Notes: generated by a model from the sequence alone, not told the origin. DNA of 64,000 bases from an uncultured Gammaproteobacteria bacterium (GCA_964406795.1 CAYOTA010000001.1:77081-141080), one strand, 5' to 3'. Numbered from the stretch's first letter, positions 19,614 through 47,521 are shown. Numbers and translations are program-made.

Positions 19614-19687
19614 TGCCATGTCGTCTAATGGTAGGACACGTCCCTCTGGAGGACGGTATTGGGGTTCAAATCCCTGCATGGCAGCCA
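19614..19687 (+). tRNA. tRNA-Gln (anticodon CUG)
   Basis: Hand-folded cloverleaf: acceptor TGCCATG/CATGGCA (U1:A72 as in bacterial tRNA-Gln), U8, A14, GG in D-loop, anticodon loop CTCTGGA, TTCAAAT T-loop, discriminator G, encoded CCA. Confidence 0.8.
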
Positions 19688-19856
19688 AGACGGGCACCCT
19701 ATGGTGACCGTGGTCTCTAGAATAGCCCGAAGGGGCTTGCTAAACGCCCATTTTTAGAGACCCAAAATTCGAACCGCTAAACACCCTCAAAAAGCTGAAG
19801 TTTCAGGCTACGGTTCCAGCCTGTCCGTTGTTCCCGATTAGGATGGATTCGAACGG
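19682..19856. repeat. Left copy of a degenerate ~170-bp direct repeat (att-like), overlapping the last 6 nt of tRNA-Gln
   Basis: Shares CAGCMAAGACGGGCACCC-TA-GGTGACCGT, GAAGGGGCTTGCTAAAMGCCC, ATTCGRACCG..AAACACCC and ATTAGGAT(G)GATTCGAAC blocks at the same spacing with 46005..46176. Confidence 0.55.
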
Positions 19857-19885
19857 GGCACTGAGGATTCACCACAGTTTCAGAT

Positions 19886-20617
19886 TTAGTTTTCAAAGAG
19901 TGGAGTGGTATTCCAATACTGGATTTCGTTGTTCCCATAGAGGGATATGCGGATACTAGGATACAGATAAGGTCTGCTACTTAGACCATCAGGAAGCTTG
20001 TAGGTTTTGTCTTCCCACGTCCATTCATGAGACTCACCGTTATTTTGTTGGGAATACGAGAATTGGTCTTTAATCTGATCAAAATTTGGTAGTCCACGCT
20101 TTAGATAACCCATCGCAATTATTTCTGCATCTGCTTTTGAAAGTTTCTGTATATTGCCGGAATCTGAGGAACAGGGAGTACCATTATTTTTATAGCTCTC
20201 AATCTCATTTGATTTCAAACCTCTAATAATAACTGCTGTTAGTTTATGATTTCTGGCATCAAGATTGTACTCATAGATGGAGCACGTTCCATTAACGAGC
20301 TCTTTTTGATCGTATACAGTCACCTGACGAACCCAACCATCAACTTTATCCATATTCTCTCCGGTACTAACTTTAGTAATTTTACCGACCCTAAAGTACT
20401 GTGTTGGCAGATCAGTACCCATTGATGAAAGATCCAGGTTCGGTTTATCCATGAACTGTCGGATGACTGAAACGTCATCTGTGGGAGTATTTTGGGTTAC
20501 ATTAGTAATTTGAGTAGGTGTTTTAATGTCTTTTTTCAGCCAAAGAAAACCTGCAACCAAACCTATTATCAGTAAGACAACGGCTATCTTTATTTTCATT
20601 ACCTTATTATATGCCAA
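19886..20617 (-). CDS. Hypothetical secreted or membrane-anchored protein
   Basis: N-terminal TM/signal; no known motif. Confidence 0.4.
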   Translation of the reverse strand: MAYNKVMKIKIAVVLLIIGLVAGFLWLKKDIKTPTQITNVTQNTPTDDVSVIRQFMDKPNLDLSSMGTDLPTQYFRVGKITKVSTGENMDKVDGWVRQVTVYDQKELVNGTCSIYEYNLDARNHKLTAVIIRGLKSNEIESYKNNGTPCSSDSGNIQKLSKADAEIIAMGYLKRGLPNFDQIKDQFSYSQQNNGESHEWTWEDKTYKLPDGLSSRPYLYPSIRISLYGNNEIQYWNTTPLFEN

Positions 20618-20631
20618 ATGGAGAGATAAGG

Positions 20632-21969
20632 TTAATGTATCGGGGCTGAAACGATTCCTTTGTCGTGAAGATATAGTTGACGGCCAAGCGTTTGAACTAC
20701 TTCTCTTTTTTCCATTGCCAATCCATTTTTTAATGCATGCTTCGCATATTCAGTAAAGGTGATCGGCTTTTTATCTGGATCAACGTCTTGTTGCAAAAGA
20801 ATTGCGTCACGAATTTCTTTATAACCCTGCATCCCTCGTTTTAGTTTTTCGGACATTCTCAATATTTGAGGATGTGCCATTTCCATAAAATTGATATATC
20901 GAAGTATAGCCTTTATAAGTTCTTCCTCGGTTACGTACGGCTCTGGACATTCGTAGTTGATCTGTCGGGTGCAATGGTAGTAGATATGGTATCGTGGAAT
21001 ACCTATTTTTCGTTTTCTATATCTGTCTTCGCCAATTACACTTGCCCCACAGAAAGCACATTTGAATAAATCTTTGAAATCGAACTTTTTACCTCCCCAT
21101 TTTGATTTTGGTGCAACAATTAGCTTTGTTTGTACTTTGTTAAATAATTCTCTTGTGACAAGAGGCTTATGTTTTCCTTCGTACCAATTCCCGCTACCAA
21201 TTGGATATTCAAATTCACCGTAGTAAAAAGGGTTTTTAAGCATTAGATAGATTTGGCTCAGTGTTACTCCTTTATTTGCTCTAGTTTTCATTCCAATCTC
21301 ATCGAACCATCTTTTGATTGTTCTTCCACTATCACCATTTTTTACAACTCTTTCAAACATTTCAGTAACAGTAGGTCCACGATCTGGATCTATGACTATA
21401 TCCTTAACTCCCGCCATAGCTCTGTTCCAATAACCGATTGGAGGCATTCCTGGTCGCCAACCCATCTCACATTTGGCGCGAATACCTCTTTTTACGTTGA
21501 TGCCTTTTTGATCATTCTCCAGTTTGGCCTGAGAGCAGAGGATCATGAGTAAAAACTTTTCATTGGGATTATTTGAGAAGCTTTGAGAGAAAGTCTTTAT
21601 TTGTTGTAATTTACCTTGATCCATAAGATCGACAAGCATTCCTAAGTCTCCTGCGTTCCGACTCAATCGATCAGGTGCCCATGTCAAAATACCAGTAAAC
21701 ATACCATCTCTAATATCACTAATAAGTTGGCTGAAAACTGGTCGTTGACCAGACATTTTTGCTGAATGACTTTCTTTACGAACTTCTTTAATGAAGTATC
21801 CCTCTCGTATTGCCATTTCAGTCATTTCTTTGATCTGTGAATCAATCGACATGGCCTGTCGTTCATCATCTTCACTCGATTTTCTAGCGTATAAACAATA
21901 TTCAACGCTTAATGTTGGGGGTATTATTTGATCAGCTGGTGCAGGTATTCTTGCCATTTCAGGGTACAA
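20632..21969 (-). CDS. Large serine recombinase (resolvase/integrase family)
   Basis: N-terminal resolvase catalytic domain YARKSSEDDERQAMSIDSQ...; recombinase domain; C-terminal zinc ribbon (CAFCG...YYHC); about 80% identical to the CDS at 46193..47521. Confidence 0.9.
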   Translation of the reverse strand: MYPEMARIPAPADQIIPPTLSVEYCLYARKSSEDDERQAMSIDSQIKEMTEMAIREGYFIKEVRKESHSAKMSGQRPVFSQLISDIRDGMFTGILTWAPDRLSRNAGDLGMLVDLMDQGKLQQIKTFSQSFSNNPNEKFLLMILCSQAKLENDQKGINVKRGIRAKCEMGWRPGMPPIGYWNRAMAGVKDIVIDPDRGPTVTEMFERVVKNGDSGRTIKRWFDEIGMKTRANKGVTLSQIYLMLKNPFYYGEFEYPIGSGNWYEGKHKPLVTRELFNKVQTKLIVAPKSKWGGKKFDFKDLFKCAFCGASVIGEDRYRKRKIGIPRYHIYYHCTRQINYECPEPYVTEEELIKAILRYINFMEMAHPQILRMSEKLKRGMQGYKEIRDAILLQQDVDPDKKPITFTEYAKHALKNGLAMEKREVVQTLGRQLYLHDKGIVSAPIH

Positions 21970-22071
21970 GGTATCGGGAACGCCCTCAGAAGTCCAGGCT
22001 CAAAATGATATATACATCACAAAAAATGCCCGATGTTACTCAGGCACTTTTTTGTTTTTAGATAGTAATAA

Positions 22072-22617
22072 TTACATTCCAAGATCGACCAATATTTTCT
22101 TATTACTATAAAAACTAGCGTTGTATTGAAGCTTGGGACCTTTTGCAGTCTTTGGTACTTCAAATCCTACCCAGTCAGTTTTCTTGGCTTTTGCAATTAA
22201 AGCGCCATCCATTCCTAAAGAACCAGCATTTTCTAGTCTTTTTCCAGTTACAGCAACTTGGTACTGATTATTGTCGCCATCTATGACGAACATCTGACCC
22301 ATTGTTGTAATGTACTGCTGACTTGATCCTGTGTTCTCAAGAGTCATGTTTACATCAATCCACTGATTACCTTCAGATGGCTTTGTGTATTGACCACCCT
22401 GAGCAGTTTCTACTTTATTTATAGTAAGGATAATATCTGACATTTGAACTTTATCTCCAACCTTGTAAGTCTCCTGACTTGGTTGTTCTTTCGTATTTGA
22501 AGTTTGAGTAGTGTCAGTAGATCCTACTTTTTTACTATCACTTCCCATACTGCCAATAACTCCGATTACTATTAGGATGATAAATCCTATTCCTCCCCAT
22601 TTAAGTAATTTCTTCAT
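22072..22617 (-). CDS. DUF4352-like lipoprotein
   Basis: N-terminal TM; all-beta domain with pattern typical of DUF4352 (YKVGDKV....T.NKVE...WIDVNMTLENTG). Confidence 0.5.
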   Translation of the reverse strand: MKKLLKWGGIGFIILIVIGVIGSMGSDSKKVGSTDTTQTSNTKEQPSQETYKVGDKVQMSDIILTINKVETAQGGQYTKPSEGNQWIDVNMTLENTGSSQQYITTMGQMFVIDGDNNQYQVAVTGKRLENAGSLGMDGALIAKAKKTDWVGFEVPKTAKGPKLQYNASFYSNKKILVDLGM

Positions 22618-22947: not shown

Positions 22948-24234
22948 CTATTCATAGAACCAACTCATCGCAGGGTTATCGACTTCCATTATTTTTCCTT
23001 TTTGAATTTTGTATACGCCATCTTCCTTAACCATAATCCACGTTCCTTCGTAATAATGCATTATGGCTTCACTCTCTACCCAATTCTTAGTGGAGAACTT
23101 CACAAAGGCTGTATCTTTCGTATCCTCAAACTTTTCGGACTTAATAACATCAACATCCAAAATATCTTTAAATCTATTTGTCCATTCTTCGAAATTTGTC
23201 TTAAGCAAGTATTCCTGGCTTAAAAGATTAAATCCATCTCTCATTCTTCTGGCTTTGAGGTATGTATAGTACGCTCTAACTGCATCTTCTGGAGACTTTG
23301 ATGGATCAACCTCAATTTTGGTAATTCCCTGATCTGTAAAACTCGGAACCATTGTCTTTGCCTGGTCGGCAGAAATATAAAGAGATAATCCAGCTAAACT
23401 TAGCGTGTTAATACCTATGACATTTCCGCACTGGTCAGCAATAGGCCCACCGCTCATTCCTTCCACCAAGCTTATATTCGTTTGTAGATAAACAACTGGA
23501 CTTCTACTAGATTTTCGAAAATCAATAAAGTTACCCCTAACAACGGTTGCTTTACCGACTAAATCTGTTCCTAATGCATAACCAGTTGATATCAATGGTT
23601 CGTCTTCGCGGAGCGTTACTCTGTCTGGAAGTGGCAATACTTTATCAGGGAACTTTTTATCAGTGAAAAGAACGGCCAAGTCAGCATCTTTATTGCCCAA
23701 TATTTTGCTTGGTGTAACAAAACTACCATCAGGAAAAATAATTTTTGGACTTGGTTCATCGGCAATAACATGGAAGTTTGTAATCACTTGGTCGTCCGAA
23801 ATAAAAAATCCTGATCCTTCGGAGTATCCGCCCACAACCCTGACTACAGAATTTTGTAGACTTTCTTTAGCTCCAAAAGAGCATAGAAACTTACCGTACC
23901 ATCCGTATTGAGTACGCAAATAGTCGGCAATAACAAAAAGCGAAGCGATCATGTATACAACTACAGCGATAACAAATAAAGACTTCAAAAAGTTTTTCAA
24001 ACTCCTAAAGGGGAAAATAATTGAGTCAATAATTATTTTGATGAGTGCGACTACAAACTTGATCGAAAAAACGACCAAGTAATAAGAAGAGTAAGTAACG
24101 AGTTTTATAGGGAACAGGTAAAGAGGGAAAAGAAGTCGCTTAAAGTAAGCACGAAATCTCGAGAGAAGCTTAGAAAAGTTATCTTGGATACTCTTTGACC
24201 ATTTCTCAAATTGTTTTTCAAGAATATTGATCAT
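22948..24234 (-). CDS. Membrane-anchored trypsin-like (S1/HtrA-type) serine protease with a C-terminal NTF2-like domain
   Basis: Two N-terminal TMs; GSGFFISDDQVITNFHVI (His), DLAVL (Asp), GMSGGPI (Ser) catalytic triad motifs. Confidence 0.65.
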   Translation of the reverse strand: MINILEKQFEKWSKSIQDNFSKLLSRFRAYFKRLLFPLYLFPIKLVTYSSYYLVVFSIKFVVALIKIIIDSIIFPFRSLKNFLKSLFVIAVVVYMIASLFVIADYLRTQYGWYGKFLCSFGAKESLQNSVVRVVGGYSEGSGFFISDDQVITNFHVIADEPSPKIIFPDGSFVTPSKILGNKDADLAVLFTDKKFPDKVLPLPDRVTLREDEPLISTGYALGTDLVGKATVVRGNFIDFRKSSRSPVVYLQTNISLVEGMSGGPIADQCGNVIGINTLSLAGLSLYISADQAKTMVPSFTDQGITKIEVDPSKSPEDAVRAYYTYLKARRMRDGFNLLSQEYLLKTNFEEWTNRFKDILDVDVIKSEKFEDTKDTAFVKFSTKNWVESEAIMHYYEGTWIMVKEDGVYKIQKGKIMEVDNPAMSWFYE

Positions 24235-24237
24235 GGT

Positions 24238-24993
24238 TTATTTTTCAAATTGCCGGACTGCCTGGCGGTACTTGCAGAAATCACAGTCTTCGCCTGGATC
24301 AGGCATTTCATCTGCCTTGAGACATTTGACTGCATCCAAGATTGTTTGCTCAACCCAGTTAGTGTTACCTTCGTACGGAATCACCTTTATATCAAACTCA
24401 AGCTTTCCATCAAAAGCTGCTGGATCAGTATCACCATTACAATATACAAAGTAGCCTACAGGAGAGACCCTAAAGCCGTTTTGACGGAATAACCATTGAT
24501 ATATTTCCATCTGCCGTTTGTAGCCGATTTGCCAATCTGCATCAAGCGTTACCTCAGCATCCTTAGATGTGGCTTTGTAGTCCACAATGATGAATTCACC
24601 ATCTGGTTTTACCCACACATCGTCGACCCCACCCGTAATTACTACGTTTTCGTCGTCAATCTTGAAAGTTATACCGGCTCGTAGTGAATCTCTCCACTCA
24701 TCTATCTTTTCATGAGCCAATGGAACAGCATCGATACCATATGTTTTCATTAGCGGATGAGGAGTTTTATTGGCTCTGTGAGTATCAAATTCCTTCTTGA
24801 GAAGCTTATCTACAGCCGAGTTGAGAGAAAATGGATATCCAGGTGGCTGACCAACACCTAGGCGTCGATCGAGGTAGAAACAACGTGGACAATTTAAGAA
24901 AAGATCAATCTTTGAACGACTTAAGCGAAACAACTCTGACGAATTTGCGTCATATAGATTTCTTGTGCGATTTGGATTGTAGTATTTTGACAT
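24238..24993 (-). CDS. Cas4/RecB-like PD-(D/E)XK nuclease with a 4-Cys cluster
   Basis: N-terminal Cys (CPRCFY), core ITGGVDDVW...IIVDYK (D..D/E.K), C-terminal CDFCKY; stop/start abuts the helicase below. Confidence 0.6.
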   Translation of the reverse strand: MSKYYNPNRTRNLYDANSSELFRLSRSKIDLFLNCPRCFYLDRRLGVGQPPGYPFSLNSAVDKLLKKEFDTHRANKTPHPLMKTYGIDAVPLAHEKIDEWRDSLRAGITFKIDDENVVITGGVDDVWVKPDGEFIIVDYKATSKDAEVTLDADWQIGYKRQMEIYQWLFRQNGFRVSPVGYFVYCNGDTDPAAFDGKLEFDIKVIPYEGNTNWVEQTILDAVKCLKADEMPDPGEDCDFCKYRQAVRQFEK

Positions 24994-24994
24994 A

Positions 24995-26983
24995 TCAGTT
25001 TGGTCTTCTGCTATTGTTTCTAGCTTGTTGCAATGATTCTAAGTATTGAATAAATTCAGATTTATCTCGTAATAGTTGTATTTGTCGATTGGACTTTTTG
25101 TATTTATAAAACTCAATATTTTCGCTAGGTAGCATATCCAAATAAGCATGCGGTCTCTGTGATCCGCCTGAACCTAAAGCAGTTATGAGATGTAGTGATT
25201 TTCTTGCTCTTGTTATAGCGACAAAAAAAGCATTTTTAGTTATCCATGACATATTTTGATTATCAAAACCAATAATCATTACATGATCTGCTGATAACCC
25301 TTTTGATCCAACAAGAGTTAATAACTCAACGGCACACATGTTCTTTACTTCTAATTCCTCAAGTTCAACAGATTCTTCTTCCTTATGTTCAGTTTGCAAA
25401 ACTTGATTCTCATCTATAGCTTGTTCAGTGAGATTGTTTCTTAATTCATCGGAATTAGTTATACCAATCTCAACACTTAACTTTTGAATCTTAACCTCGA
25501 TAGAATCTGTTGATTCGATAATTTCTTTTACTTTCTGACATTTGCTTAGAATTAACTGCACGGACTCGTGAGCTAATTCGAAAAACTGCTTACTAGAAGT
25601 AAGACATTCATTTATCAAAACACTAATATCAGTTGTAGCAGTACCTTCATAGTAGAAAACCTTACGAAAGGTGAAATTATTCTCAGGGTGCCTAGCAAGA
25701 GAGTAATAAGTCAATAGTTTGTAGTAATCTTCTGAAAATTTCTTAGGTTCTTCTTTATATTCAGCAACCATTTCAAATAAATCTTTATTTGCATTTGAAT
25801 TCGCATAAAAAGTTACTTGTCCGGCAGGAGTCAAAATAAGTAAAAACGGATCTTTGCTCTGTCCACTTATTAAATCATTCTTCCTTGTTGCTATTTCTTG
25901 TGCGTGGTCTTCAATGAATTTTTTAATATAGTCAACCGCTGTAGGAGAAGTGGCACATCCAATAATCTGCACTTTTGGACATTGAGTGTCTGTAGAGATT
26001 GGTAAATATACCTTCTCTATACATCCATCTTCTTGCGATTGTTTAATAAAGTGACTAGCGGTTTTTGTAATATGAAAGCTACTTCGGCCACAAAATGGAA
26101 GCATTGCCGATGTGAAGCTTGTATCTTGATATAGATTTCTTATCAATTCTGCTTTTCCTGACTTTAGTTTCTCATAAAGAACTTGATCATCATCTCCAAC
26201 TATCAAGACACCAGAATTGCCAATGGTAAGTTCATTTATGAAATTCTCCTCGGCAGTATTGAAGTCTTGATATTCATCAATAATATAAAATTGATGTTTT
26301 ATTAGTGATCGATTTTCCAATAGTGCTTTTGGTGCATGAAAAATTAAATCTGCGAAGCCTACGGCGTTATAGAATTTGGACAACTTGAAATAGTTATAAA
26401 TCACAATTTCCCACTCCTCTGAAGTGTTGAAGTTCGAATTATGGAGTTGTTCGTTAAATTTCTTAAATGAATATGTTGTCTTGTCTGGTTGATCAACAGT
26501 AAGTAACACATCCTCCCAGACTGCGTCTGTCCAAACATCACTGATAATTCTGAAATGCGGTTGAAATCTTATTTCTGGAGTTCCGTGATTTTGTTCTACT
26601 ATACTTCGAGCATATTTATGCAATGTATGAACTTCAACTTGCCCTTTTTGATCTTCAGTAAGACTTGTGTCATTTTGAATATCATTTTGTAAGTCAGCTA
26701 CAAGTTTACGAACAAAACTTAATGCTAAAATTCCTGCGGATGGATTTTGAGTTAGCCAGTAGTCGATTCGTTGTTTAAAAATTGTGCTTTTCCCCGTTCC
26801 CGGTCCTGATACGATTACAATCTTGACTGATGGATGGCCAGCAATTGCACTAGCATTACCGTTTCGATAATTGGTTCGTTCAATATCAGTTAATCTATCA
26901 AGATCACCACTTATTGTTTGTAATTCAGTGCTATTAAATGGTTCACCGTTGTCGTTGATTAAGTGTCTTATTACATTTGGCAT
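24995..26983 (-). CDS. UvrD/Rep-family SF1 DNA helicase
   Basis: GPGTGKST (I), IIDEYQDFN (II), IVGDDDQ (III), VAITRARKSLHLI (VI). Confidence 0.8.
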   Translation of the reverse strand: MPNVIRHLINDNGEPFNSTELQTISGDLDRLTDIERTNYRNGNASAIAGHPSVKIVIVSGPGTGKSTIFKQRIDYWLTQNPSAGILALSFVRKLVADLQNDIQNDTSLTEDQKGQVEVHTLHKYARSIVEQNHGTPEIRFQPHFRIISDVWTDAVWEDVLLTVDQPDKTTYSFKKFNEQLHNSNFNTSEEWEIVIYNYFKLSKFYNAVGFADLIFHAPKALLENRSLIKHQFYIIDEYQDFNTAEENFINELTIGNSGVLIVGDDDQVLYEKLKSGKAELIRNLYQDTSFTSAMLPFCGRSSFHITKTASHFIKQSQEDGCIEKVYLPISTDTQCPKVQIIGCATSPTAVDYIKKFIEDHAQEIATRKNDLISGQSKDPFLLILTPAGQVTFYANSNANKDLFEMVAEYKEEPKKFSEDYYKLLTYYSLARHPENNFTFRKVFYYEGTATTDISVLINECLTSSKQFFELAHESVQLILSKCQKVKEIIESTDSIEVKIQKLSVEIGITNSDELRNNLTEQAIDENQVLQTEHKEEESVELEELEVKNMCAVELLTLVGSKGLSADHVMIIGFDNQNMSWITKNAFFVAITRARKSLHLITALGSGGSQRPHAYLDMLPSENIEFYKYKKSNRQIQLLRDKSEFIQYLESLQQARNNSRRPN

Positions 26984-27050
26984 AGTTTTTTATTATTTTC
27001 AATCATTGGGTGGCAACTGGTCTAATCCATACATCTTGTCTTGAGACATG

Positions 27051-31287: not shown

Positions 31288-31291
31288 AGTT

Positions 31292-36907: not shown

Positions 36908-37334
36908 GACTATTTTCTTTGGACGGAATAAGTGCCGCCATTTCTATTGCTTTATTGAGTAATTCTTTCTGTTCATCTGTCAGGTTAATTTCTTTGTTAT
37001 AGCCAGCGGTAGTCACCTCAACTCTGTTGCGATAGGAATCATGATGTGTCTTAAGCCAGAAAATTATCGAGGTCATGTTTTTATCCTTAATGGCACTAAT
37101 TAGCTGGCTCTCGGCTAGATCATTCACAAGCAAGTTGCCTTCTTGCAAGGCTTCATCTGCCTGTTTTGAAAACTCTTTATCTTCAGCTCTCCATCGATAA
37201 TATGTCGAACGTCCTACATTGGTTTTCTCACAGGCCACCTGAACTATGGGAGTTTTCTTTAGTTGCTCTACCAGTAGATCTTGTTCAACTTTTATACGAT
37301 CTCTAACTGTAATTTGATTATCTTTGTTGTTCAT
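36900..37334 (-). CDS. Phage terminase small subunit-like HTH protein
   Basis: HTH ACEKTNVGRSTYYRWR; ...IIFWLKTHHDSYR typical of TerS; overlaps terL by 8 nt. Confidence 0.5.
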   Translation of the reverse strand: MNNKDNQITVRDRIKVEQDLLVEQLKKTPIVQVACEKTNVGRSTYYRWRAEDKEFSKQADEALQEGNLLVNDLAESQLISAIKDKNMTSIIFWLKTHHDSYRNRVEVTTAGYNKEINLTDEQKELLNKAIEMAALIPSKENSHE

Positions 37335-38074: not shown

Positions 38075-39338
38075 ATTTTGCCTCCTTTCCAGTCAATTGT
38101 TGATACCGAGCGACAATAACATCACAAAAGATCGGATCAATTTCGCAGAGGAACACCCTGCGTTTCAACTGCTCGGCGGCTACAAGTTGACTTCCTGAAC
38201 CTCCAAAGAGGTCAAGAATAATATCTCCTGGCTTGGTACAACGACGGAATGCTTTCTCATATAAAGTAGGGGGCTTTTGTGTAGGATGTTCGTAGTCCTG
38301 TCCATTTACACGCTTCACGAGCCAGATATTAAATAAGTCCATGATGTCATCGGGAAGTCGATTACCTGTTCCAATCTCTTTATTGAGGACTTCGCTGATA
38401 TTGTGAACAGAAGCTGATAGGTAAGGACTGCCGATAGTTCCGTAGACGCAAGGCTCGAAAACCTTATTAAATGCAATTTGGGGAGTCATGTTGGAATTAT
38501 TCTTGATCCAAAGACAAACTCGTTTGTTATTAATTCCTAATTCTGAATACAAACTTTGTAGCATCCCAATGTATGTTTCATCACACCAACAAAAGATGTG
38601 ACAATCGGGGTAAATAAATTGCAAGCCGTTTTGAAGAACAGTTTTTAGAAATTCTCGGTACTCACTGTCAGATTTTTTGTCAGTAGCTCTGCCTCCATAT
38701 TTTCCTTTTGTGCTCACGCCCTTGTTGTAACTAAGTCCGATGTTATAAATCGGATCATAATTAAGCATATGGATTTTATGGTCATCAACTAACTCCTTAA
38801 CCACTTCAGAACTGGTACTATCCCCGCAATACAATCTGTGTTGCCCTAGCAAAATTAGATCACCCAGTTTTGTTCTTGGATTTCTTATCTTTGTCGCCTC
38901 TACCTCAGCATCAAAATCATCATCTTCAACACCAAGCGCATCGTCAAAAATATGGGTGAAATCAAGATCGTCAAAACCAGATTCCAAAAGCAGTTCCATG
39001 TCAAAGCTTTTTAAAAGTTCGTAATCCCAATCGCCAGATACGCGATTCAAAGTCAAATTCAATTTCTTCTCTCTTTCTACATCTTCGATGTCGATAAAAT
39101 TTACAGGAACCGTTTCGTATCCTAAGTCCTTGGCAATTTTTAATCTTAGATGACCTGCGATTACGGTTCCGTAGCGAGATTTATTGCTATTAACTAGGAT
39201 TGGAATAACAAACCCGTTTTCCTTAATACTTTTCGTCGCATCATGTATAGTCTTTTCATACCAAACACGAGGATTGTAACCAGCAGGGTTTAAATCGTTG
39301 ATAGGAACTTCAACTGTTTGAAGAGATATTTGTTTCAT
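38055..39338 (-). CDS. ParB-like nuclease domain fused to a DNA methyltransferase (phage-type)
   Basis: N-terminal ParB/Srx fold (VPINDLNPAGYNPR...IAGHLRL); C-terminal ILDLFGGSGSQLVAAE motif I. Confidence 0.75.
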   Translation of the reverse strand: MKQISLQTVEVPINDLNPAGYNPRVWYEKTIHDATKSIKENGFVIPILVNSNKSRYGTVIAGHLRLKIAKDLGYETVPVNFIDIEDVEREKKLNLTLNRVSGDWDYELLKSFDMELLLESGFDDLDFTHIFDDALGVEDDDFDAEVEATKIRNPRTKLGDLILLGQHRLYCGDSTSSEVVKELVDDHKIHMLNYDPIYNIGLSYNKGVSTKGKYGGRATDKKSDSEYREFLKTVLQNGLQFIYPDCHIFCWCDETYIGMLQSLYSELGINNKRVCLWIKNNSNMTPQIAFNKVFEPCVYGTIGSPYLSASVHNISEVLNKEIGTGNRLPDDIMDLFNIWLVKRVNGQDYEHPTQKPPTLYEKAFRRCTKPGDIILDLFGGSGSQLVAAEQLKRRVFLCEIDPIFCDVIVARYQQLTGKEAKYVNPKE

Positions 39339-39590: not shown

Positions 39591-39773
39591 ATGAACAAAA
39601 CAGAAAAAATTCCAGAGCTGCTAACCCTAAAGGAAACATGCGACCTTCTTAAGGTTCATGCCAATACGCTTAGACAGTGGGATAAAAAGGGTATCTTAGT
39701 TGCGGTACGTTTCGGCGCGCGAAAAGATCGAAAATATAACAAAGAAGATGTCTTAAGGTTACTAAAAGGGTAA
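39591..39773 (+). CDS. Excisionase-family (AlpA-like) HTH protein, 60 aa
   Basis: LLTLKETCDLLKVHANTLRQWDKKGILVAVRFG; 3-nt gap to the next gene. Confidence 0.65.
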   Translation: MNKTEKIPELLTLKETCDLLKVHANTLRQWDKKGILVAVRFGARKDRKYNKEDVLRLLKG

Positions 39774-39776
39774 ATT

Positions 39777-42700
39777 ATGGAAGATATTAATTGGAGTGCT
39801 TTTAAGGCGAAATTCGATGGAAAAGAACAAAAGTCGTTCGAGAGGCTCAGTTACCTCCTTTTTTGTGACGAGTTTAACAAACCATTAGGGTTGTTTCGAT
39901 ATAAAAACCAGGCTGGCATTGAAACAGAACCAGTTGAAGTTGACGGGAAAAATATTGGCTTCCAGGCAAAATTTTATGAAACATCTCTTGCTAGTAATAA
40001 AGCTGAAATAATAGACGCACTTAAGAAAGCAAAAGATAAAAACTCCGAACTTAATAAAGTTATTTTCTATACAAACCAGGAGTTTGCGGAAAGTAGCAAG
40101 AAAAACAAAAAAGAACCTGACTATAAAGTAGAGATTGAAAATTATGCCAAATCATTAGTTTTAGAAATTGAATGGAGAACTAAGAGTTATTTTGAGTCAT
40201 CTCATGTAAGTATTAAAAATAAAAACATTGCCCATCATTATTTTAGCCTTGAAAAAAGCACACTTGACTTAGTTACTGAATTAACTCAACACTCGGACTC
40301 AATCATCTCTCCAATACACTCATTAATTGAATTTAATAACCAAGAAATTAAAATACAACGTGCTGAGACTCTTGCATTTCTCATTAAAAAACTTAAGGAT
40401 TTTCCATTAGTTATTTTGAGTGGCGAAGGCGGATCAGGAAAAACAGCGATTATAAAAGACTTTTATGATGCGAAAAAGAATGAATCACCCATTTTTATAT
40501 TTAAGGCTACAGAGTTTAATATATCGAATATCAATTTGCTGTTTAAAAACTACGGGGAATTTACTCTAGCTAGCTTTAATGAAGAATTATCTGGATATTC
40601 TGAAAAATTTATTGTAATTGATTCTGCTGAAAAACTGTCAGACATAGAGGATACTCAAGCTTTTCAAGAATTTTTAACTACAACACTCAGCAATAAATGG
40701 AAAATAATCTTTACAACACGATATAACTACCTTGATGACTTGAAATTTCAACTTACCAACATTTATGGAAGAAACTTTCATTTAATTAATATTGAAAATC
40801 TTGATCAGAAAGCCCTTAGTGATTTAGCATCTAAGTATGGTTTTAAATTGCCTCAAAACGACAAGTTTATAGATCTGATAAAAAATCCATTTTATCTTAA
40901 TGAATATTTGCAAAATTACACGACTTTAGGTGAATCAACAAACCCTACTGAATTTAAAGAACTCATATGGAACAAGCAAATATTGGGAAATTTCCAAAGA
41001 AATAACACGCATATAAAAAGGGAGGAAGTATTTCTAAAAATCGCAGAAAAAAGGGCAAATGACACTTCATTCTTTGTAAATACAGCTGAATTCGACAGTG
41101 AAATTCTTCACAAGCTTGAATCAGATGAGTTAATCAAACATGATCCTCGCACGGGTGGGTATTTTATTACGCATGACATATACGAAGAGTGGGCGTTAAA
41201 CAAAATAATTGATAGAGAGTTTTATAAAAATGAAGACAAACTCGATTTCCTAAAATCCATCGGCATTTCATTACCAGTTCGTAGAGCCTTTAGAATTTGG
41301 CTTTCAGAAAAACTTGCTGTTAAACCAAAGGAAATAGAGTCTTTTATCGATACCGTAATAAAAACTAAAGAAATCGAACCTTTTTGGAAAGATGAATCAA
41401 TTATATCTGTCCTATTGTCAGACTATGCTCAAACATTTTTTGAATTGTATGAGCAGAAAATATTAGCCAATGATTACGAGCTATTGGTCAGAATTATTTT
41501 TCTCCTGAGAATCGCGTGTAAAGAAATTGATGAGACACTACTACATCTCTTGGGGCTACAGAAGACTGATGGTATTGCTTTAAAAACTATTTTCACAAAA
41601 CCAAAAGGTGCAGGATGGAATTGCGTTATAAGTCTAATATTTAAGCATAAAGAGGAACTTGGCTTGACCAAGATGTTTATCATTACGTCTTTGTTGGCTG
41701 ACTGGAATAGCAAGTTTAAGAGGGGTAATACCACAAAAAATGCGAGTCTAATTGCTCTCTATTTATATGAACAATTTATGGATCAAGGTGGCTATTGGTC
41801 TGGATCAAGAGATGACAAGAAGGAAGAAATAGTAAATGTTATTTTGCAAGGTTCCGCTGAGATTAAAGAAGAGTTAAAAAAAGTTTTTGATACTGTAATA
41901 GCTGAAAAACAAACAAGCCACAGAGATAAATACTACCCATTAGTTGAGGTAATGTTAGGATCAATCTCTAGTGCCGCGGAAATTACAATGAACTTACCAG
42001 AATATGTTATTAAAATAGCTGACTTATATTGGTATAGACCGCCTGTTAAAGAGCTTAATCCATACGAACATCATTCAATTGGCGTTGAACAACACTTCGG
42101 CTTAAGTGAGATGCATGACTTTAACTACTTCCCCCCTAGTGCGCTTCAAACACCAACATTTCTACTTTTAAGATACCATCCTCAACTTGCAGTAAATTTC
42201 ATATTGTCATTTACAAATAAGACAGCTGAATGTTATTCAAAATCAGAATTTGGAGACGAGGTTGAAGAGGTGGAAATTTTTTTCGATGAATCATCATCCA
42301 TAAAACAACTAATTAGTAATCGTTTATGGAATATGTACAGGGGTACTCAGGTTTCCACCAGTCTTTTAGAGTCAATACATATGGCACTTGAGAAATGGCT
42401 ACTCGAATTCGCCAAAATTGTATCTGGTGAGGTTTTAGAGAGTTGGTGCCTATATCTACTCAAGAATTCGAAGTCTGCATCGATTACAGCAGTAGTGACA
42501 AGTGTCGTTCTAGCTAACCCAGATAAATTAAGCAAAGTCGCCATTATTTTATTTAGGTCTAGAAAATTGTTTTTTTATGACACAGGTAGATATAGCTTAG
42601 ATCAAACTGCCAGTTTTCAGTATTCAATAGGGAGCGGTTTGGGTCATGGAGATATGTATAGAAACGAAAGAATTAAAACGTGTGAAGATCCACATAGGAA

Positions 42701-44513
42701 ACAATCATTAGAATATTTGGCAGTAAATTATCAATTTTTTAGATCTGATAAAGTTGATGAAAAAACAGCCGAAAACAGACTAAAAGAAGTTTGGGATGTT
42801 ATCGATAAACATTATTCCGAACTTCCTGATGAACAAAGTGAGACTTCAGAAGACAAGACGTGGAGGCTGTATCTTGCGAGAATGGATAAAAGGAAAATGA
42901 ATCCTAAGCTTGAAAGAAAAGATGGACAAGTACTAATAAAGTTTAATCCTAAGATTGAACCGAAGTTGAGGAAGTACAGTGAAGATTCTTTGAAGAAAGG
43001 TAATGAGGCCTCAAAATATGTCCAACTTAAACTTTGGTCTAGCTACAGATTTGAATACAAGAAAGAAGAATACGAAAAATATGAAAAGTATCAAGATAAT
43101 CCAACGCAGGTTATATCCGATGTAAAAAAGATTGTTAGTAAGATAAAAAGAAATAAAGATGATAACTTCTCACTGCTGAATAGAACAATTCCAGTATTTT
43201 CATGCGCTGTTTTAGTGCGAGACTATTTTGATCAATTAAGCCCTAAGGATAAAGAGTATTGTAAAAAAATCTTACTAGAGTTCGCTTTTCTTCCACTTAA
43301 TCCTCAATACCGCTTTCAAATTTCTGATGGAGTTGAACCAGCAATTGCAAGCCTTCCCTTATTAATAAAAAACTTTCCCTCTGATAGAACAGAGACAAAA
43401 GCTTTATTACTGATGCTTTTAGTTAGTTCGTGGGGACATATTGAAGTATTTGTTATCAAAGCGATATTACATCAACTATGGAAACTGAGCTTTAAAGATG
43501 CACAGTCCTTATTATTTGGCTATATTTTATTAAAACCTAAATACGATCTTCTTAGAGAAGAATTAAGAAAAGAAAGTTATAAGAATTATCATTATGAGGA
43601 TTTAGAACCTAAGTTAATGTTAGCGTTCACTCAAAAGTATGAGAAGGAAAGCGAATCTGTTGTTGTGGATGCGATTTCGTACAAGGACTTAGAACCTTTA
43701 GCAGATTTAGAAAACGATGTCTTGAATACAATATTTGAACTAATTCCTTTAAGAACTTCAGATGAAGAACACAAAAAAATAATTGGTCAATTATTTCCGA
43801 TTTTTTCTAAAAAAATGTTCAAAGAGCGTGATGGAGATAGCTATCAATTAAGGCAAAGGTTTTTTGAGAAGATGTCTTATTTTCTACTCACATCTAGTAA
43901 AGATGAGCTGCATACGCACTTAATCCCGTTCATTGAAAACTTCACCCTCTCGAGGGAAACGGCAGACTTTTTTCAAGCACTAGTATTTGCTGAAGATTCA
44001 CTAAATGAATATGAGAACTTTTGGACTATATGGAACAATTACTACGATAAACTAAAGGATGCTTGTCAGGCAGAAAGACCCAATTTTTATCTTAAAGAAA
44101 TTATTCGTAACTATCTACTTGCTGGGTCATTTTGGAAGGAAGAAGCGAAAGAGTGGCATTCTTTAAAAGATCGTGAAAAAAGCTTTTTTAGCAATGTTGC
44201 TAATGAAATGGGTAAGTTCCCGACGACCCTTTATTCCATTTCTAAACTTTTAAACGAAATTGGAAGCAAATTCTTAGATGATAGTATTTACTGGATAGCA
44301 ACTATCATAGATAAAAATCCTGAATTAACCTCTGCTGATTTGGATACCAATACCATTTATTATCTTGAAAATTTAATTAGAAAACACATTCTGGTAGACA
44401 GACAAAGTATTAAAAGAAACACTAAAGAAAAAAAGGCTGTTATTTCCATTCTTAACTTCCTTGTTGAGCATGGTTCTCCAACGGGTTATTTGCTAAGAGA
44501 GGATATTCTTTAA
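39777..44513 (+). CDS. Giant Mrr-like restriction-endonuclease domain + STAND/NACHT NTPase + ~1200-aa C-terminal helical region (Avs-like antiviral NTPase candidate)
   Basis: N-terminus FERLSYLL...AGIETEPVEVDGKNIGFQAKFY...VIFYTNQEF (Mrr_cat-like D...QxK); Walker A ILSGEGGSGKTAII; Walker B FIVIDSAEKL; NACHT TTR motif KIIFTTRYNY. Confidence 0.6.
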   Translation: MEDINWSAFKAKFDGKEQKSFERLSYLLFCDEFNKPLGLFRYKNQAGIETEPVEVDGKNIGFQAKFYETSLASNKAEIIDALKKAKDKNSELNKVIFYTNQEFAESSKKNKKEPDYKVEIENYAKSLVLEIEWRTKSYFESSHVSIKNKNIAHHYFSLEKSTLDLVTELTQHSDSIISPIHSLIEFNNQEIKIQRAETLAFLIKKLKDFPLVILSGEGGSGKTAIIKDFYDAKKNESPIFIFKATEFNISNINLLFKNYGEFTLASFNEELSGYSEKFIVIDSAEKLSDIEDTQAFQEFLTTTLSNKWKIIFTTRYNYLDDLKFQLTNIYGRNFHLINIENLDQKALSDLASKYGFKLPQNDKFIDLIKNPFYLNEYLQNYTTLGESTNPTEFKELIWNKQILGNFQRNNTHIKREEVFLKIAEKRANDTSFFVNTAEFDSEILHKLESDELIKHDPRTGGYFITHDIYEEWALNKIIDREFYKNEDKLDFLKSIGISLPVRRAFRIWLSEKLAVKPKEIESFIDTVIKTKEIEPFWKDESIISVLLSDYAQTFFELYEQKILANDYELLVRIIFLLRIACKEIDETLLHLLGLQKTDGIALKTIFTKPKGAGWNCVISLIFKHKEELGLTKMFIITSLLADWNSKFKRGNTTKNASLIALYLYEQFMDQGGYWSGSRDDKKEEIVNVILQGSAEIKEELKKVFDTVIAEKQTSHRDKYYPLVEVMLGSISSAAEITMNLPEYVIKIADLYWYRPPVKELNPYEHHSIGVEQHFGLSEMHDFNYFPPSALQTPTFLLLRYHPQLAVNFILSFTNKTAECYSKSEFGDEVEEVEIFFDESSSIKQLISNRLWNMYRGTQVSTSLLESIHMALEKWLLEFAKIVSGEVLESWCLYLLKNSKSASITAVVTSVVLANPDKLSKVAIILFRSRKLFFYDTGRYSLDQTASFQYSIGSGLGHGDMYRNERIKTCEDPHRKQSLEYLAVNYQFFRSDKVDEKTAENRLKEVWDVIDKHYSELPDEQSETSEDKTWRLYLARMDKRKMNPKLERKDGQVLIKFNPKIEPKLRKYSEDSLKKGNEASKYVQLKLWSSYRFEYKKEEYEKYEKYQDNPTQVISDVKKIVSKIKRNKDDNFSLLNRTIPVFSCAVLVRDYFDQLSPKDKEYCKKILLEFAFLPLNPQYRFQISDGVEPAIASLPLLIKNFPSDRTETKALLLMLLVSSWGHIEVFVIKAILHQLWKLSFKDAQSLLFGYILLKPKYDLLREELRKESYKNYHYEDLEPKLMLAFTQKYEKESESVVVDAISYKDLEPLADLENDVLNTIFELIPLRTSDEEHKKIIGQLFPIFSKKMFKERDGDSYQLRQRFFEKMSYFLLTSSKDELHTHLIPFIENFTLSRETADFFQALVFAEDSLNEYENFWTIWNNYYDKLKDACQAERPNFYLKEIIRNYLLAGSFWKEEAKEWHSLKDREKSFFSNVANEMGKFPTTLYSISKLLNEIGSKFLDDSIYWIATIIDKNPELTSADLDTNTIYYLENLIRKHILVDRQSIKRNTKEKKAVISILNFLVEHGSPTGYLLREDIL

Positions 44514-45817
44514 AAAAGCGATAAATTTTCATTTATCTTTATTTGATTTAGACCTGCAAGCAGCAGTGATATTAAATAATATCTTCTGTCCGGTTTTGCA
44601 TAAAGAATCATGTTTTGAAGGTACATTTTGGTTGTAGTGTCGTCTATTTCGCTAAATTTCATTGGATAAATTGAGAGTTTGATTGTGCTTTCGCTCATGC
44701 GGGCGTGAATATCCCATCGCATCCGTTCAAATCTGACTATCTCGTCCTGAATCTGCTCTGGAAAATTGATTTTTGAAACATCGACGGAATCAATGAGCTT
44801 AGTTATATCCCGGAAGACATCTTCTTCTAAGACATATTCAACCTTACATTTTTTATCTTTTTGACGACTACATCTGTAGTAAGTATGAAAATTCGATCTG
44901 CCGTTTTTAAGTTTCCGAATTTTACTCTGGCGGTGCACTGGCGACCCACAACGAGCGCATTTTAGAAATCTGGCTATCGAATACTTATCTCCACGGGCAT
45001 ATGTATTGCGGAATGGTCGGAGTTTTGCTTGAACCTGATCATATCGTTCTAGGGTGACGGTAGGTTCGTAAATTCCTTGATATTCAATACCCTTAATCAC
45101 AAATCTGCCAGCATAGAATTTGTTTCGGAGTATTCCATAAATAACACTCTGAGGAATGTGTTTTCCTTTGGCACTTCTTAAAGAAGTATTCTTATTGATC
45201 CATGCAATTACTTTTTTTACGGGTATTCCGTCCGCTACCTTCTGGAATAACTTTGAAATGGGTTCTCCTCGCTCTGGATCGATGGAGATTTTACGTACTC
45301 CACCAATCGTTTCACTGATATAGCCAATTGGCACTGGCCCCGGCCAATATCCGAGCTGGCACTGATTTCGTATCCCGCGCCGAATGTTTATGCTTCGATT
45401 ATCGTTCTCTAGCTTAGCTTGACTGCCAAGGATCATTAAGAGGAACTTCTCATTAGGATTGTCGGTAAAGGTCTGTGAGTACGTCACGATCATCTTAAGC
45501 TTCCCCTCGTCCATCAGATCGACCAAGATACCAAGGTCTCCAGCGTTCCTTGATAATCTGTCTGGCGACCATGTAATAATGCCGGAGTAAATACCTTGCT
45601 CGATTTCTTTAAGTAGTTTGTTAAAAGTTTCTCGTTGTCCGCATTTTTTAGCAGTGTGACTTTCCCGATAGATTTCGCCAATTTCAAGATTATCTCGTTG
45701 TGCTATCTTTTGCATTTCGTTTACCTGCGAGTCGATAGAGATTGCCTGTCTTTCGTCCGACTCCGATGATTTTCTGGCATAGAGGCAAAACCGTATGTGC
45801 GAATCTTGTTTTTCCAT
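44510..45817 (-). CDS. Large serine recombinase (more divergent paralog)
   Basis: YARKSSESDERQAISIDSQ catalytic region; zinc ribbon CARCG...YYRC. Confidence 0.9.
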   Translation of the reverse strand: MEKQDSHIRFCLYARKSSESDERQAISIDSQVNEMQKIAQRDNLEIGEIYRESHTAKKCGQRETFNKLLKEIEQGIYSGIITWSPDRLSRNAGDLGILVDLMDEGKLKMIVTYSQTFTDNPNEKFLLMILGSQAKLENDNRSINIRRGIRNQCQLGYWPGPVPIGYISETIGGVRKISIDPERGEPISKLFQKVADGIPVKKVIAWINKNTSLRSAKGKHIPQSVIYGILRNKFYAGRFVIKGIEYQGIYEPTVTLERYDQVQAKLRPFRNTYARGDKYSIARFLKCARCGSPVHRQSKIRKLKNGRSNFHTYYRCSRQKDKKCKVEYVLEEDVFRDITKLIDSVDVSKINFPEQIQDEIVRFERMRWDIHARMSESTIKLSIYPMKFSEIDDTTTKMYLQNMILYAKPDRRYYLISLLLAGLNQIKINENLSLF

Positions 45818-46004
45818 TCAACTCAACACATACCGGGAATATTTGAGGAATGCAAGCTAATTTTAGATAAATATATCAAAGTACATCATACCTAAATTGT
45901 GAGACACCCTTTTTTATAGTGTCCCATTTGTCTCATTTTTGATAGAATTAGCCTCGAAAGCTAATTGGGCTATAGGGATAAAAAGGGTCTAGACCGTACC
46001 CCAC

Positions 46005-46176
46005 AGCAAAGACGGGCACCCCTAGGTGACCGTATTCCCTATTTAGCTTGAAGGGGCTTGCTAAAAGCCCCTTCAAGACGGGAAACATTCGGACCGACAA
46101 AACACCCCCAAGTTCTCAATATTAGGCTAGGGTTCACATATGTCCTACTTAACCGGAGGAATTAGGATTCGAACAG
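46005..46176. repeat. Right copy of the ~170-bp degenerate direct repeat (att-like)
   Basis: See 19682..19856; contains perfect hairpin GAAGGGGC-TTGCTAAAA-GCCCCTTC. Confidence 0.55.
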
Positions 46177-46192
46177 TAGATTTGCAATCCGA

Positions 46193-47521
46193 TCAAATAA
46201 GCGGTACGGAGGTTACAGTTTCGTTGTGGATATAAAGCTGTCGGTTTAATATGTTCGTTACCTCCCGTTTTTCCTGCACGGTCCCGTTGCGAAATATGTA
46301 GTTTGCGTAATCCATAAAATGCACTGATTTGTTTTCGGGATTAATATCCTGCGCCCATAGAATTTCATCTCTCATTTTCTTATACGCTTCCATACTTTCC
46401 TTAATAAATTCCTTAAAAGTAAAGATCTGAGGATGTGCCATGTACATAAAGTTTAAGTATCGTAATATTTGTTTTATGAGCTTTTCTTCGGTCAGGTATG
46501 GCTCAGGACAGCCATACTTCTTTTGCCTTGTGCAATGATAATAAATATGATAAACAGAGGGTCTTGCTTTCCTCTTTCTGTATCTGTCTTCGCCGATAAC
46601 CAAGGATCCACAGCTTGCACATTTGAATAAATCTTTGAAGGTAAATGTTTTGCTTCCCCATTTTGCTTTTTTGAATGGAACCGCAAGTTGTTTCTGGACT
46701 TGATCAAATAGTTCTTTAGTAATTAATGGTTGATGAGAGCCCTTATACCAGTTTCCGCTACCGATTGGGTATTCAAATTCGCCATAGTAAAAGGGATTCT
46801 TTAGCATGAGGTAAATCTGACTTAACGTTACTCTCTTTCCTGCTCGTGTTGTAAGACAAGTATCTAGCCATTTCTTAAGCGTCCTTCCACTGTCACCATT
46901 CCTTGCGACACGTTCAAACATTTCAGTAACTATGTGACCTCTGTCGGGATCTACCACAATATCTTTTATTCCTGCCATAGCTCGGTTATAGTAACCAATT
47001 GGTGGCATGCCTGGTCTCCATCCCATGTTACACTTTGCTCGAATACCTCGCTTAACGTTAATTCCTTTTTGATCGTTCTCCAACTTTGCTTGAGAACACA
47101 AGATCATTAAGAGAAACTTTTCATTTGGATTATTAGAAAAACTTTGACTAAATGTTTTTATTTGCTGAAGTTTACCTTGGTCCATCAGATCTACAACCAT
47201 TCCTAAGTCTCCTGCATTACGGCTTAAACGATCAGGAGCCCAAGAAAGAATACCTGTAAACATTCCATTTCTAATATCCTCAAGTAACTTTCTAAAAACT
47301 GGTCGTTGTCCTGATTCTTTAGCCGAATGACTTTCTCGACGTATCTCTTTAATAAAGAATCCTTCTCTTTCTGCAAGTTCGCTCATTTCTTTAACTTGTG
47401 AGTCAATAGACATTGCTTGTCGCTCATCATCTTCGCTGGATTTCCTTGCATACAAACAATACTCAATAATATGGATTTGTATAGATGGAGTAACTCTTAA
47501 AGGCTCGCTGTATTTATCCAT
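46193..47521 (-). CDS. Large serine recombinase
   Basis: Same architecture and high identity to the CDS at 20632..21969. Confidence 0.9.
   Translation of the reverse strand: MDKYSEPLRVTPSIQIHIIEYCLYARKSSEDDERQAMSIDSQVKEMSELAEREGFFIKEIRRESHSAKESGQRPVFRKLLEDIRNGMFTGILSWAPDRLSRNAGDLGMVVDLMDQGKLQQIKTFSQSFSNNPNEKFLLMILCSQAKLENDQKGINVKRGIRAKCNMGWRPGMPPIGYYNRAMAGIKDIVVDPDRGHIVTEMFERVARNGDSGRTLKKWLDTCLTTRAGKRVTLSQIYLMLKNPFYYGEFEYPIGSGNWYKGSHQPLITKELFDQVQKQLAVPFKKAKWGSKTFTFKDLFKCASCGSLVIGEDRYRKRKARPSVYHIYYHCTRQKKYGCPEPYLTEEKLIKQILRYLNFMYMAHPQIFTFKEFIKESMEAYKKMRDEILWAQDINPENKSVHFMDYANYIFRNGTVQEKREVTNILNRQLYIHNETVTSVPLI

Follow-up and report, generated by a model that had tools for sequence, protein, structure and literature searches.

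The classic insertion sites of tyrosine integrases are tRNA genes. Large serine recombinases (LSRs) mobilise the staphylococcal cassette chromosome (SCC) elements, islands at the 3' end of rlmH/orfX that have several LSR paralogues, tandem composite forms and variable cargo. Canonical LSRs recombine only attP with attB, and the attachment (att) sites of LSRs need about 50 bp. In this work we analysed a stretch of 64,000 nucleotides assigned to an uncultured Gammaproteobacteria bacterium (GCA_964406795.1 CAYOTA010000001.1:77081-141080), hereafter named the window, whose coordinates are used throughout. Between positions 19614 and 47521, the window probably contains two related LSR-mobilised integrative elements in tandem at the 3' end of a tRNA-Gln(CTG) gene, a younger one next to the tRNA (island-1) and the remains of an older one behind it. 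Two degenerate repeats found in this region would be the P' arms of these two elements. The name P' arm, given by analogy with attP = P/P', is used for the stretch between an LSR gene and the tRNA end.

Serine integrases at tRNA genes were previously noted only as rare, unverified cases. Mageeney et al. (2020) counted 14 of 297 at t(m)RNA sites, a use not "reported previously" (PMC7192596). Among tycheposons and cryptic elements 910 of 937 had a tyrosine recombinase, the rest (27 by subtraction) having an LSR (bioRxiv 10.1101/2020.12.28.424599). In our literature search nothing was found on LSRs at tRNAs in the candidate phyla radiation (CPR).

The closest analogue in behaviour is SCCmec, with its recombinases CcrA/CcrB or CcrC. 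Like SCC, the elements studied here are LSR islands at the 3' end of a conserved housekeeping gene that is not inactivated, with more than one LSR paralogue per element, composite arrays and variable accessory cargo. However, the target here is a tRNA gene instead of a protein-coding gene, the LSR genes lie at opposite ends of the element and not in one operon, and the hosts are Patescibacteria. The closest analogues in target choice are the tyrosine-integrase tRNA islands (P4-like elements, pathogenicity islands and most tycheposons), which also occupy a tRNA 3' end, leave the tRNA intact, have the integrase at the junction, carry defence cargo and accrete in tandem, the newest element being nearest to the tRNA. 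The enzyme here is a serine recombinase, only the tetranucleotide CAGC is present instead of a long identical direct repeat, and the far end is a degenerate mimic of the tRNA end, not a displaced tRNA fragment. The LSRs of phages (phiC31, Bxb1, A118, TP901-1 and SprA of SPbeta) share with those of the window the Resolvase, Recombinase and zinc-ribbon domains, the location of the integrase gene by the att site and quasi-palindromic half-sites located about 20–25 bp from a short core (GGTC at about -20, GACC at about +20). The characterised phage enzymes target protein-coding genes, whereas here the attP-side arms are conserved over 100–190 bp with extra boxes; to our knowledge, such long conserved arms are not known for LSRs. 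Island-1 also differs in the absence of structural phage genes, since it has only those of the small and large terminase subunits (TerS/TerL). Conserved ends and a conserved backbone with swappable defence cassettes are likewise found in defence-loaded satellites and prophage hotspots (P4/P2 hotspots, PICI-like elements), but the backbone of island-1 includes both terminase subunits, and no capsid-redirecting genes, primase or replicase were recognised in it.

Boundaries of island-1 and of the probable older element

The window was compared with 89 loci encoding Rec3 relatives (9 viral and 80 genomic, designated with L numbers), nearly all of them from metagenome-assembled genomes of Patescibacteria/CPR; the closest ones were from Levybacteria. 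The sole tRNA of the window, tRNA-Gln(CTG), was located at 19614–19687 on the plus strand by ARAGORN and Rfam (55.7 bits). This gene is intact and stands at the left end of the island, as the first-pass annotation had proposed; its T arm and acceptor 3' strand would constitute the B half-site of the chromosomal target. Three LSR genes are present, all on the minus strand. Rec1 (20632–21969) is proximal to the tRNA, Rec2 (44510–45817) occupies the opposite end of island-1 and has its 5' end toward the junction, and Rec3 (46193–47521) is ascribed to the older, displaced element, of which no backbone genes remain. The full LSR domain set of Pfam (Resolvase, PF00239; Recombinase, PF07508; Zn_ribbon_recom, PF13408) was found in each of them, in agreement with the three serine recombinases annotated at first, and Rec1 also matched a PHROG integrase. 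The motif YARKSS (columns Y24 A25 R26 K27 S28 S29) was invariant in a 7-sequence alignment and is also present in Rec2. It includes the Y-x-R-x-S of the catalytic serine, the putative nucleophile being assigned by analogy with resolvases. Matches in the PDB were only distant (E about 1e-8 to solved or characterised LSRs), and identity to any deposited phage protein was below 28%. A guide RNA of the TnpB/IscB type downstream of these ORFs was rejected, the ORFs being true LSRs by domain content. Rec1 and Rec3 had been described as near-identical, which is not the case: their amino acid identity is 74% and their DNA identity about 75%. Rec2 and Rec3 have 46% identity.

The two repeat copies align from 19682–19854 (copy A) to 46004–46174 (copy B), with 123 identical columns out of 176 (70%) and sub-blocks of 82–87% identity. 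The local score of 56 is far above that of shuffled sequences (8.7 +/- 1.25; z about 38). Both copies begin with CAGC, which corresponds to nucleotides 71–74 of the tRNA in copy A, and both end in GGATTCGAAC, the shared terminal segment already noticed in the first-pass annotation. The similarity is colinear with that of Rec1 and Rec3, the offset being 25,561 between the two genes but 26,322 between the two arms. A 243-aa ORF (19886–20617) inserted between copy A and Rec1 accounts for the extra distance, so that Rec1 does lie inside the left repeat, as had been stated, but not directly beside it. Hence, the recurring unit consists of the arm plus the LSR gene. In copy A (19686–19885, plus strand), the P' arm of island-1, GACC starts at +21 and is followed by the GGCTTGCTAAA box (19734–19744), TTCGAACCG, ACCCTCAAAA and GGATTCGAAC. 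Copy B (46008–46192, plus strand) is the P' arm of the older element, now separated from the tRNA, and resembles the arms of L010 and L011.

The sequence at the left junction is GGCAGC/CAAGACGGG and that at the right one is CACAGC/AAAGACGGG (the slash marks the boundary). Only CAGC, located in the tRNA at 19682–19685 on the plus strand, is common to both, and it is the putative crossover at attL. Island-1 therefore extends from 19686 to 46007 (26,322 bp, give or take the four shared bases). Its true right end is a P arm of 190 nt (45818–46007, plus strand) made of TGTC(C/T)CATTTGTCTCATTT repeats and a pseudo-T-arm P half-site, GGGTCTAGACCGTACCCCACAGC (45985–46007), which is a degenerate copy of the T arm and acceptor end of the tRNA. 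The last segment is 22/23 identical to the arm that precedes a Rec2-type gene (90% identical) in L240. There the P arm ends at the same CAGC base (...CCCCACAGC/) against the 3' end of a core gene for a solute-binding protein, and the layout is that of the window: P arm, Rec2-type LSR and convergent defence cargo, a type I restriction-modification (R-M) system in that case.

Copy B is about 95% identical to the arm of L010 over 93 nt and 85% identical to that of L011 over 180 nt. In both loci this arm lies between a Rec3-like LSR gene and a directly adjoining tRNA-Gln; the similarity to the window ends at CAGC, and to the left of copy B there is no tRNA in the window. The closest relatives of Rec3 are the LSRs of the same two loci (90% and 88% amino acid identity, respectively), whereas Rec1 is as close to Rec3 as to the LSR of a viral contig, L001 (74%). 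In the LSR tree L011 groups with Rec3, and Rec1 falls outside this pair. Since Rec3 and copy B are closer to L010 and L011 than to Rec1 and copy A, the two modules have separate histories and did not arise by local duplication. The proximal module of the second element thus adjoins tRNA-Gln by itself elsewhere, which supports the initial suggestion that related elements integrated at this tRNA one after another. The repeats are alike through kinship of the two elements; judged on the sequences, they are neither recombination products nor the bounds of one island.

On the left flank, the order Lon, SNase, DUF333 protein and DEAD-box helicase is common to the window, L090 and L092, in accordance with the core nature attributed to this side. 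A search with the helicase (with the correct start) also retrieved L094, which is the same genome as the window. In L090/L091, tRNA-Gln(CTG) adjoins the syntenic DEAD-box helicase (74% identical to that of the window) and is followed by an unrelated flank with a GIY-YIG ORF; neither an LSR nor any P' box was found at this site. Because the same tRNA-Gln is present there without an element, the tRNA is chromosomal and the P' arm is borne by the element. The tRNA side of an empty site was in this way found in relatives, as the first-pass annotation had asked; L090/L091 are a different species, the far-side flank is not syntenic, and the unoccupied relative carries genes other than glpK, gpsA and nuo on the far side of tRNA-Gln. 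At this locus there are, then, an intact tRNA at a junction with an integrase, an unoccupied related site and a defined far-end junction.

Two further observations concern these flanks. In L090, tRNA-Glu(CTC) is occupied by an LSR element (14810–15935) in which GACC lies at +23 and GGCTTGCTAAA at +55; no tRNA is present at the syntenic place in the window. Moreover, a small GIY-YIG gene preceded by TTCGAC occurs directly past the (former) tRNA 3' flank in two unrelated contexts, namely at the unoccupied tRNA-Gln of L090 (3850–4389) and on the B' side of the first junction of the window (1465–1800).

Linkage of the recombinase family to tRNA 3' ends

Around the LSR genes of the 89 loci, one tRNA was found in 424 kb of upstream sequence and 68 in 372 kb of downstream sequence. 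At least 400 bp of downstream sequence were available in 81 loci. A downstream tRNA was present in 48 of these, and the first one was convergent with the LSR gene in all 48 cases, with a spacer often of only 95–220 nt. These first tRNAs were of the types Gln (25), Ser (15), Asn (3), Glu (2), Lys (1), Arg (1) and Asp (1). The tRNA type largely tracks the LSR tree, with few switches, which fits a specificity encoded in the protein. In two loci, L038 and L047, nearly identical LSRs and P' arms were found at tRNA-Lys and tRNA-Glu, the 3' ends of which are alike (GGGCTCAC and GGGGTCAC), and a P' arm of the window type is located at tRNA-Lys in L208. It therefore seems easy for the target to change between tRNAs whose ends are similar.

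The P' arms were compared using 50 LSR-facing tRNAs and 23 tRNAs classed as "other". GACC starting at +15 to +27 from the tRNA end was present in 32 of the 50, against a background of 2.9%. It was also present in 2 of the 23 others, both of which turned out to be LSR-facing in loci fetched later (effectively 0/21). The GGCTTGCTAAA box was detected at about +46 to +55 in 16 loci with Gln, Asn, Ser and Glu targets, and TTCGrACCG occurs near +90, followed by ACCCTCAAAA. Taken together, the P' arm is best read as a series of DNA sites, its first ~25 nt being a putative integrase half-site. A metagenome scan with the P' core gave 120 matches, three of them relevant (L146, L185 and L208) and the others due to chance in GC-rich DNA.

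Some arms stand apart. In L185 (3455–3650, from a metagenome) a complete P' arm (GACGGGCACC...GTGACCG, GGCTTGCTAAT, TTTCGTACCGG) comes after tRNA-Gln(CTG) with no LSR gene in the next 10 kb, and it looks like the orphan arm of a decayed element. The P' arms of the Saccharibacteria-type loci L035, L061, L071 and L073 (tRNA-Gln spacers) lack GGCTTGCTAAA and have 2–3 direct copies of GACCGnGTTCCATGACC, so separate clades of the family have different repeated boxes in the same arm. Other candidate functions were discarded. A tmRNA, permuted tmRNA or pseudo-tRNA, suggested by the GGATTCGAAC motifs, gave negative results with ARAGORN and Rfam; no -10 element was seen by eye at the right spacing for a sigma-70-like promoter in the GCTTGCTAAA box; and a box common to P and P' arms (TAGCYYGAW) was dropped as chance (4 occurrences in the window, 4.2 expected).

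P arms related to that of island-1 were found in L012, L022, L023, L031, L072, L146, several viral contigs and, by BLAST with the island-1 P arm, at 1302–1465 of the window (plus strand), where it forms the right end of another element of the same family. In about a dozen elements these arms end in the T-arm-like sequence GGTTCnAGACC plus the last 4–5 nt of the cognate tRNA, that is, CAGCC for Gln, CCGCC for Ser and CACC for Lys/Glu; the P halves of other Gln-targeting elements end in CAGC(C). A scan of viral sequences with the P-arm repeat provided five relevant contigs among matches that were otherwise mostly low-complexity noise, and the exact P half gave no matches in the viral scan. The junction between the P arm of island-1 and the P' arm of the Rec3 element has the form of an attP. 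Similar P/P' junctions were observed in L023, L146, L099 and L110, and these may be tandem arrays or free forms. The attP of island-1 is predicted to read ...GGGTCTAGACCGTACCCCACAGC/CAAGACGGGCACCC..., and the site left after its excision would be tRNA...GGCAGC/AAAGACGGGCACCCC....

The junction at 1302–1465 (...GGTTCCAGACCCGTATGGCTCACC/CTTCGACAAGC) suggests a target tRNA ending in ...CTCACC(A). The body of that element would lie to the left of the window, the GIY-YIG ORF is located past the junction, and the surrounding ORFs are 98–451, 463–1305 and 1420–1800. Another P arm belongs to L111, an IMG/VR contig in which a unit of 9,117 nt is repeated head to tail (positions 5264 and 14381). This unit contains genes for a ParB-methyltransferase (ParB-MTase, 76% identical to that of the window), an MTase (83%), TerS, a truncated TerL, a NUDIX protein and an RNR-like protein plus the P arm, without any LSR. 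It could represent either a small circular element or a concatemer made during assembly.

The two LSR types also occur together elsewhere. L021 and L236, which belong to one contig, show in this order, starting from the far end, a Rec2-type LSR, defence cargo (TIR, AAA_15 and a type ISP enzyme), the backbone, a Rec1-type LSR, a P' arm and tRNA-Gln. No close relatives of Rec2 were found in viral contigs. The genes for ParB-MTase, MTase, TerS and TerL lie just upstream of the LSR gene in about 40 of the 89 related loci, which indicates that the family derives from phages or phage-like elements of CPR bacteria.

Proposed mechanism and alternative explanations

In the preferred reading, with two elements in tandem, island-1 is composed of a conserved end at the tRNA (the P' arm, a small cargo slot and Rec1), a phage-derived backbone, several defence modules, and a conserved far end formed by Rec2 with the P arm. 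The older element, of which only the P' arm and Rec3 are left (46008–47521), would have been displaced from the tRNA by the later arrival of island-1. Catalysis is attributed to the Rec proteins. The LSR would bind a chromosomal site formed by the T arm, the acceptor strand and the downstream flank of the tRNA, and an element site in which the P half mimics the tRNA end (GGTCTAGACC...CAGC) and the P' half has GACC about 20 nt from the centre. Strand exchange, at a presumptive cleavage dinucleotide, would take place within CAGC (tRNA nucleotides 71–74), leaving the tRNA intact and replacing its 3' flank with the P' arm. In the circle deduced from these junctions, both LSR genes would be on one strand, on either side of attP.

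One important question is whether the same features can be explained without two integrations. The first-pass annotation proposed a single 26.5-kb island bounded by attL and attR, in which the attachment site was duplicated to give the ~170-bp repeats and the three recombinases all belong to the island. The repeats are indeed real and direct, the left one begins in the tRNA 3' end, and their spacing (26,322 bp) is the length of the island. However, strand exchange by serine integrases takes place at an overlap of 2 bp and does not generate long repeats. In addition, the identity of the copies is no more than 70%, their similarity is colinear with that of Rec1 and Rec3 (74%), the right copy is beyond the element end as set by L240, and the ~95%-identical relatives of copy B are at tRNA-Gln elsewhere. 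This makes a single island highly improbable. A structured non-coding RNA travelling with the recombinase gene, either a tRNA trailer or a 3'-UTR element of the LSR gene, is scarcely more credible. In its favour, both copies can fold a hairpin past the tRNA end and a second stem around GCUUGCUAAA, a 13-bp stem is retained in copy B, L011 and L010 despite A-U/U-A and G-U changes, and the fold z-scores range from -1.3 to -3.1. Nevertheless, the repeat unit had no Rfam match even at E <= 10, and RNAalifold found no conserved pair in 17 P' arms of Gln-, Asn-, Ser- and Glu-linked elements, in which it is the primary-sequence boxes that are conserved; the stems of the close relatives are not retained in L015, L016, L021 and L238.

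Duplication in place of the arm and its LSR gene within one element, with subsequent divergence and no second integration, would explain why the modules are colinear and in the same orientation. It is hard to reconcile with a Rec3 that is 90% identical to the LSR of L010 (with an arm ~95% identical) and only 74% to Rec1, with the equally close relative of Rec1 in the viral contig L001, or with L240, where the P arm that separates the modules terminates an element, and we consider it very unlikely. We give just as little credence to the tRNAs beside the LSR genes being phage-borne cargo instead of integration targets. Phages often carry tRNAs, several of the loci are on contigs called viral, and L002 ends shortly past the tRNA. 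Against this, the tRNA of the window is flanked by core genes, the same tRNA-Gln lies beside the same helicase without an element in L090/L091, and the far ends bear mimics of tRNA ends, not tRNAs. The convergent orientation in 48 of 48 cases and the motifs at a fixed distance from the tRNA 3' end also fit an att junction.

Several results weigh against the tandem of two LSR-mobilised elements. For island-1 to enter between the tRNA and a P' arm already in place, attP would formally have to recombine with attL, so that the canonical LSR reaction does not account for the route to the array. The far-end P arm of the Rec3 element is missing or is, at best, a doubtful remnant in the 67-nt spacer between Rec3 and glpK (47522–47588). 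This spacer contains AAGTCCAGACGCAGAATGC, which by eye comparison with the P halves is possibly, and tentatively, a decayed P half-site. The GACC motif is absent at 18 of the 50 LSR-facing tRNAs. Neither a genome of this species lacking island-1, nor a circular form, nor an excision product was found, and an exact scan of metagenomes with the tRNA 3' end gave 0 matches. Finally, a 97% identical relative of Rec2 is proximal to the tRNA in L238, with a copy-A-like arm. Hence, the Rec2 type is not confined to the far end, and the LSR subtypes have no fixed roles: they are interchangeable and not strictly paired.

A more specific version of the mechanism is put forward only as a speculative proposal, which we regard as unlikely. 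According to it, this LSR family would recognise the T arm and acceptor end of the tRNA as attB by means of an attP whose one half imitates the tRNA end, would need accessory sites in the long conserved arms, TAGCYYGA-N3-GGCTTGCTAAA (about +40 to +57) and TTCGrACCG (about +90), and would use two paralogous LSRs flanking attP. If true, these properties, which would give the outer P' boxes a role as accessory sites, would permit recombination of attP with attL at an occupied site and would explain both the recurrent P/P' junctions and the tandem defence islands at tRNAs of Patescibacteria.

Cargo of island-1, neighbouring genes and significance

The genes between the repeats are defence or mobile cargo, as first annotated (Avs4, type III Res/Mod, DrmD-like, GajB/UvrD-like and Cas4-like proteins, TerS/TerL and MTases). 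The slot between the P' arm and Rec1 is occupied by the 243-aa ORF mentioned above (minus strand), which has an N-terminal transmembrane segment and no family match. This slot is variable: it holds unrelated genes in other loci, and the ORF is unrelated to the one in the same slot of L238. Rec1 is followed, on the minus strand, by genes encoding a DUF4352 protein (22072–22617), a membrane-anchored trypsin-like protease (22948–24234), a Cas4-like PD-(D/E)XK nuclease (24238–24993) and a UvrD/GajB-like helicase (24995–26983). The next operon, also on the minus strand, encodes type III Res (27051–29729; PADLOC REase_III, 6.1e-185), type III Mod (29689–31287; MTase_III, 2.9e-193) and a DrmD-like SNF2 helicase (31292–34327; DrmD, 1e-206), with a HTH_17 gene (34329–34499) at its head. 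An XRE-type HTH gene (34619–34831, minus strand) and the gene for a SHOCT-domain protein (34948–35358, plus strand) separate it from the backbone, which was identified with PHROGs and encodes TerL (35360–36907), a TerS-like HTH protein (36900–37334), an MTase (37331–38074) and the ParB-MTase (38055–39338), all on the minus strand. The last operon, on the plus strand, is formed by a second HTH_17 gene (39591–39773) and avs4 (39777–44513). Avs4, a STAND anti-phage NTPase, matched its PADLOC profile in full length (PDLC02169, E = 0, 1979 bits; residues 1–1578 versus profile positions 1–1570).

The adjacent Mod and Res genes constitute a type III R-M system. DISARM requires the DrmA/DrmB/DrmC set along with DrmD/DrmE and a methylase, and only the DrmD-like SNF2 protein is present, beside the type III R-M genes. 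Gabija is not present either, since the GajB-like UvrD helicase neighbours the Cas4-like nuclease and not GajA, an OLD-family nuclease. Nor can island-1 be called an intact prophage, since only TerS, TerL, the MTases and an XRE repressor-like gene were recognised, and no genes for portal, capsid, tail or lysis proteins. The defence slots of the window thus hold Avs4, type III R-M plus the SNF2 helicase, and the helicase-nuclease pair; L240 and L236 carry other cargo. The two HTH_17/MerR-like genes, one per defence operon, are paralogues of 56–60 aa that account for a 44-nt inverted repeat, and their products may be regulators or candidate directionality factors.

To the right of Rec3, after the 67-nt spacer, lie glpK, gpsA, a multicopper oxidase gene and nuo-like genes. 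The longest form of the glpK-like ORF (47589–48854) overlaps gpsA (48748–49638) by 107 nt. Its true start is likely at MAKNHILVLDIGTTG, and the protein is short (~387 aa), with only a partial FGGY_C match. The region 49657–59871 encodes the multicopper oxidase, a DUF4396 protein and a run of complex-I-like proteins (NuoL/M/N-type antiporter subunits, chain 6 and a NuoH-like protein). Its GC content is 5–10 points above the rest of the window, and its content is unusual for a CPR genome, the closest relatives of the genome of the window being Levybacteria.

By itself, the window is a correctly delimited composite island and nothing categorically new. What is new is that a whole clade of LSRs spread through Patescibacteria is tied very consistently to tRNA 3' ends, with defined junctions and an attP half that mimics the tRNA. 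The integrase/att-site pairs can be tested for LSR-based genome engineering, with natural targets that are among the most conserved sequences in biology. The array also raises the mechanistic question of how a serine integrase builds tandem arrays at an occupied site. For the ultra-small CPR genomes, these elements identify the vehicles of defence systems such as Avs4, R-M systems and helicase-nuclease pairs.

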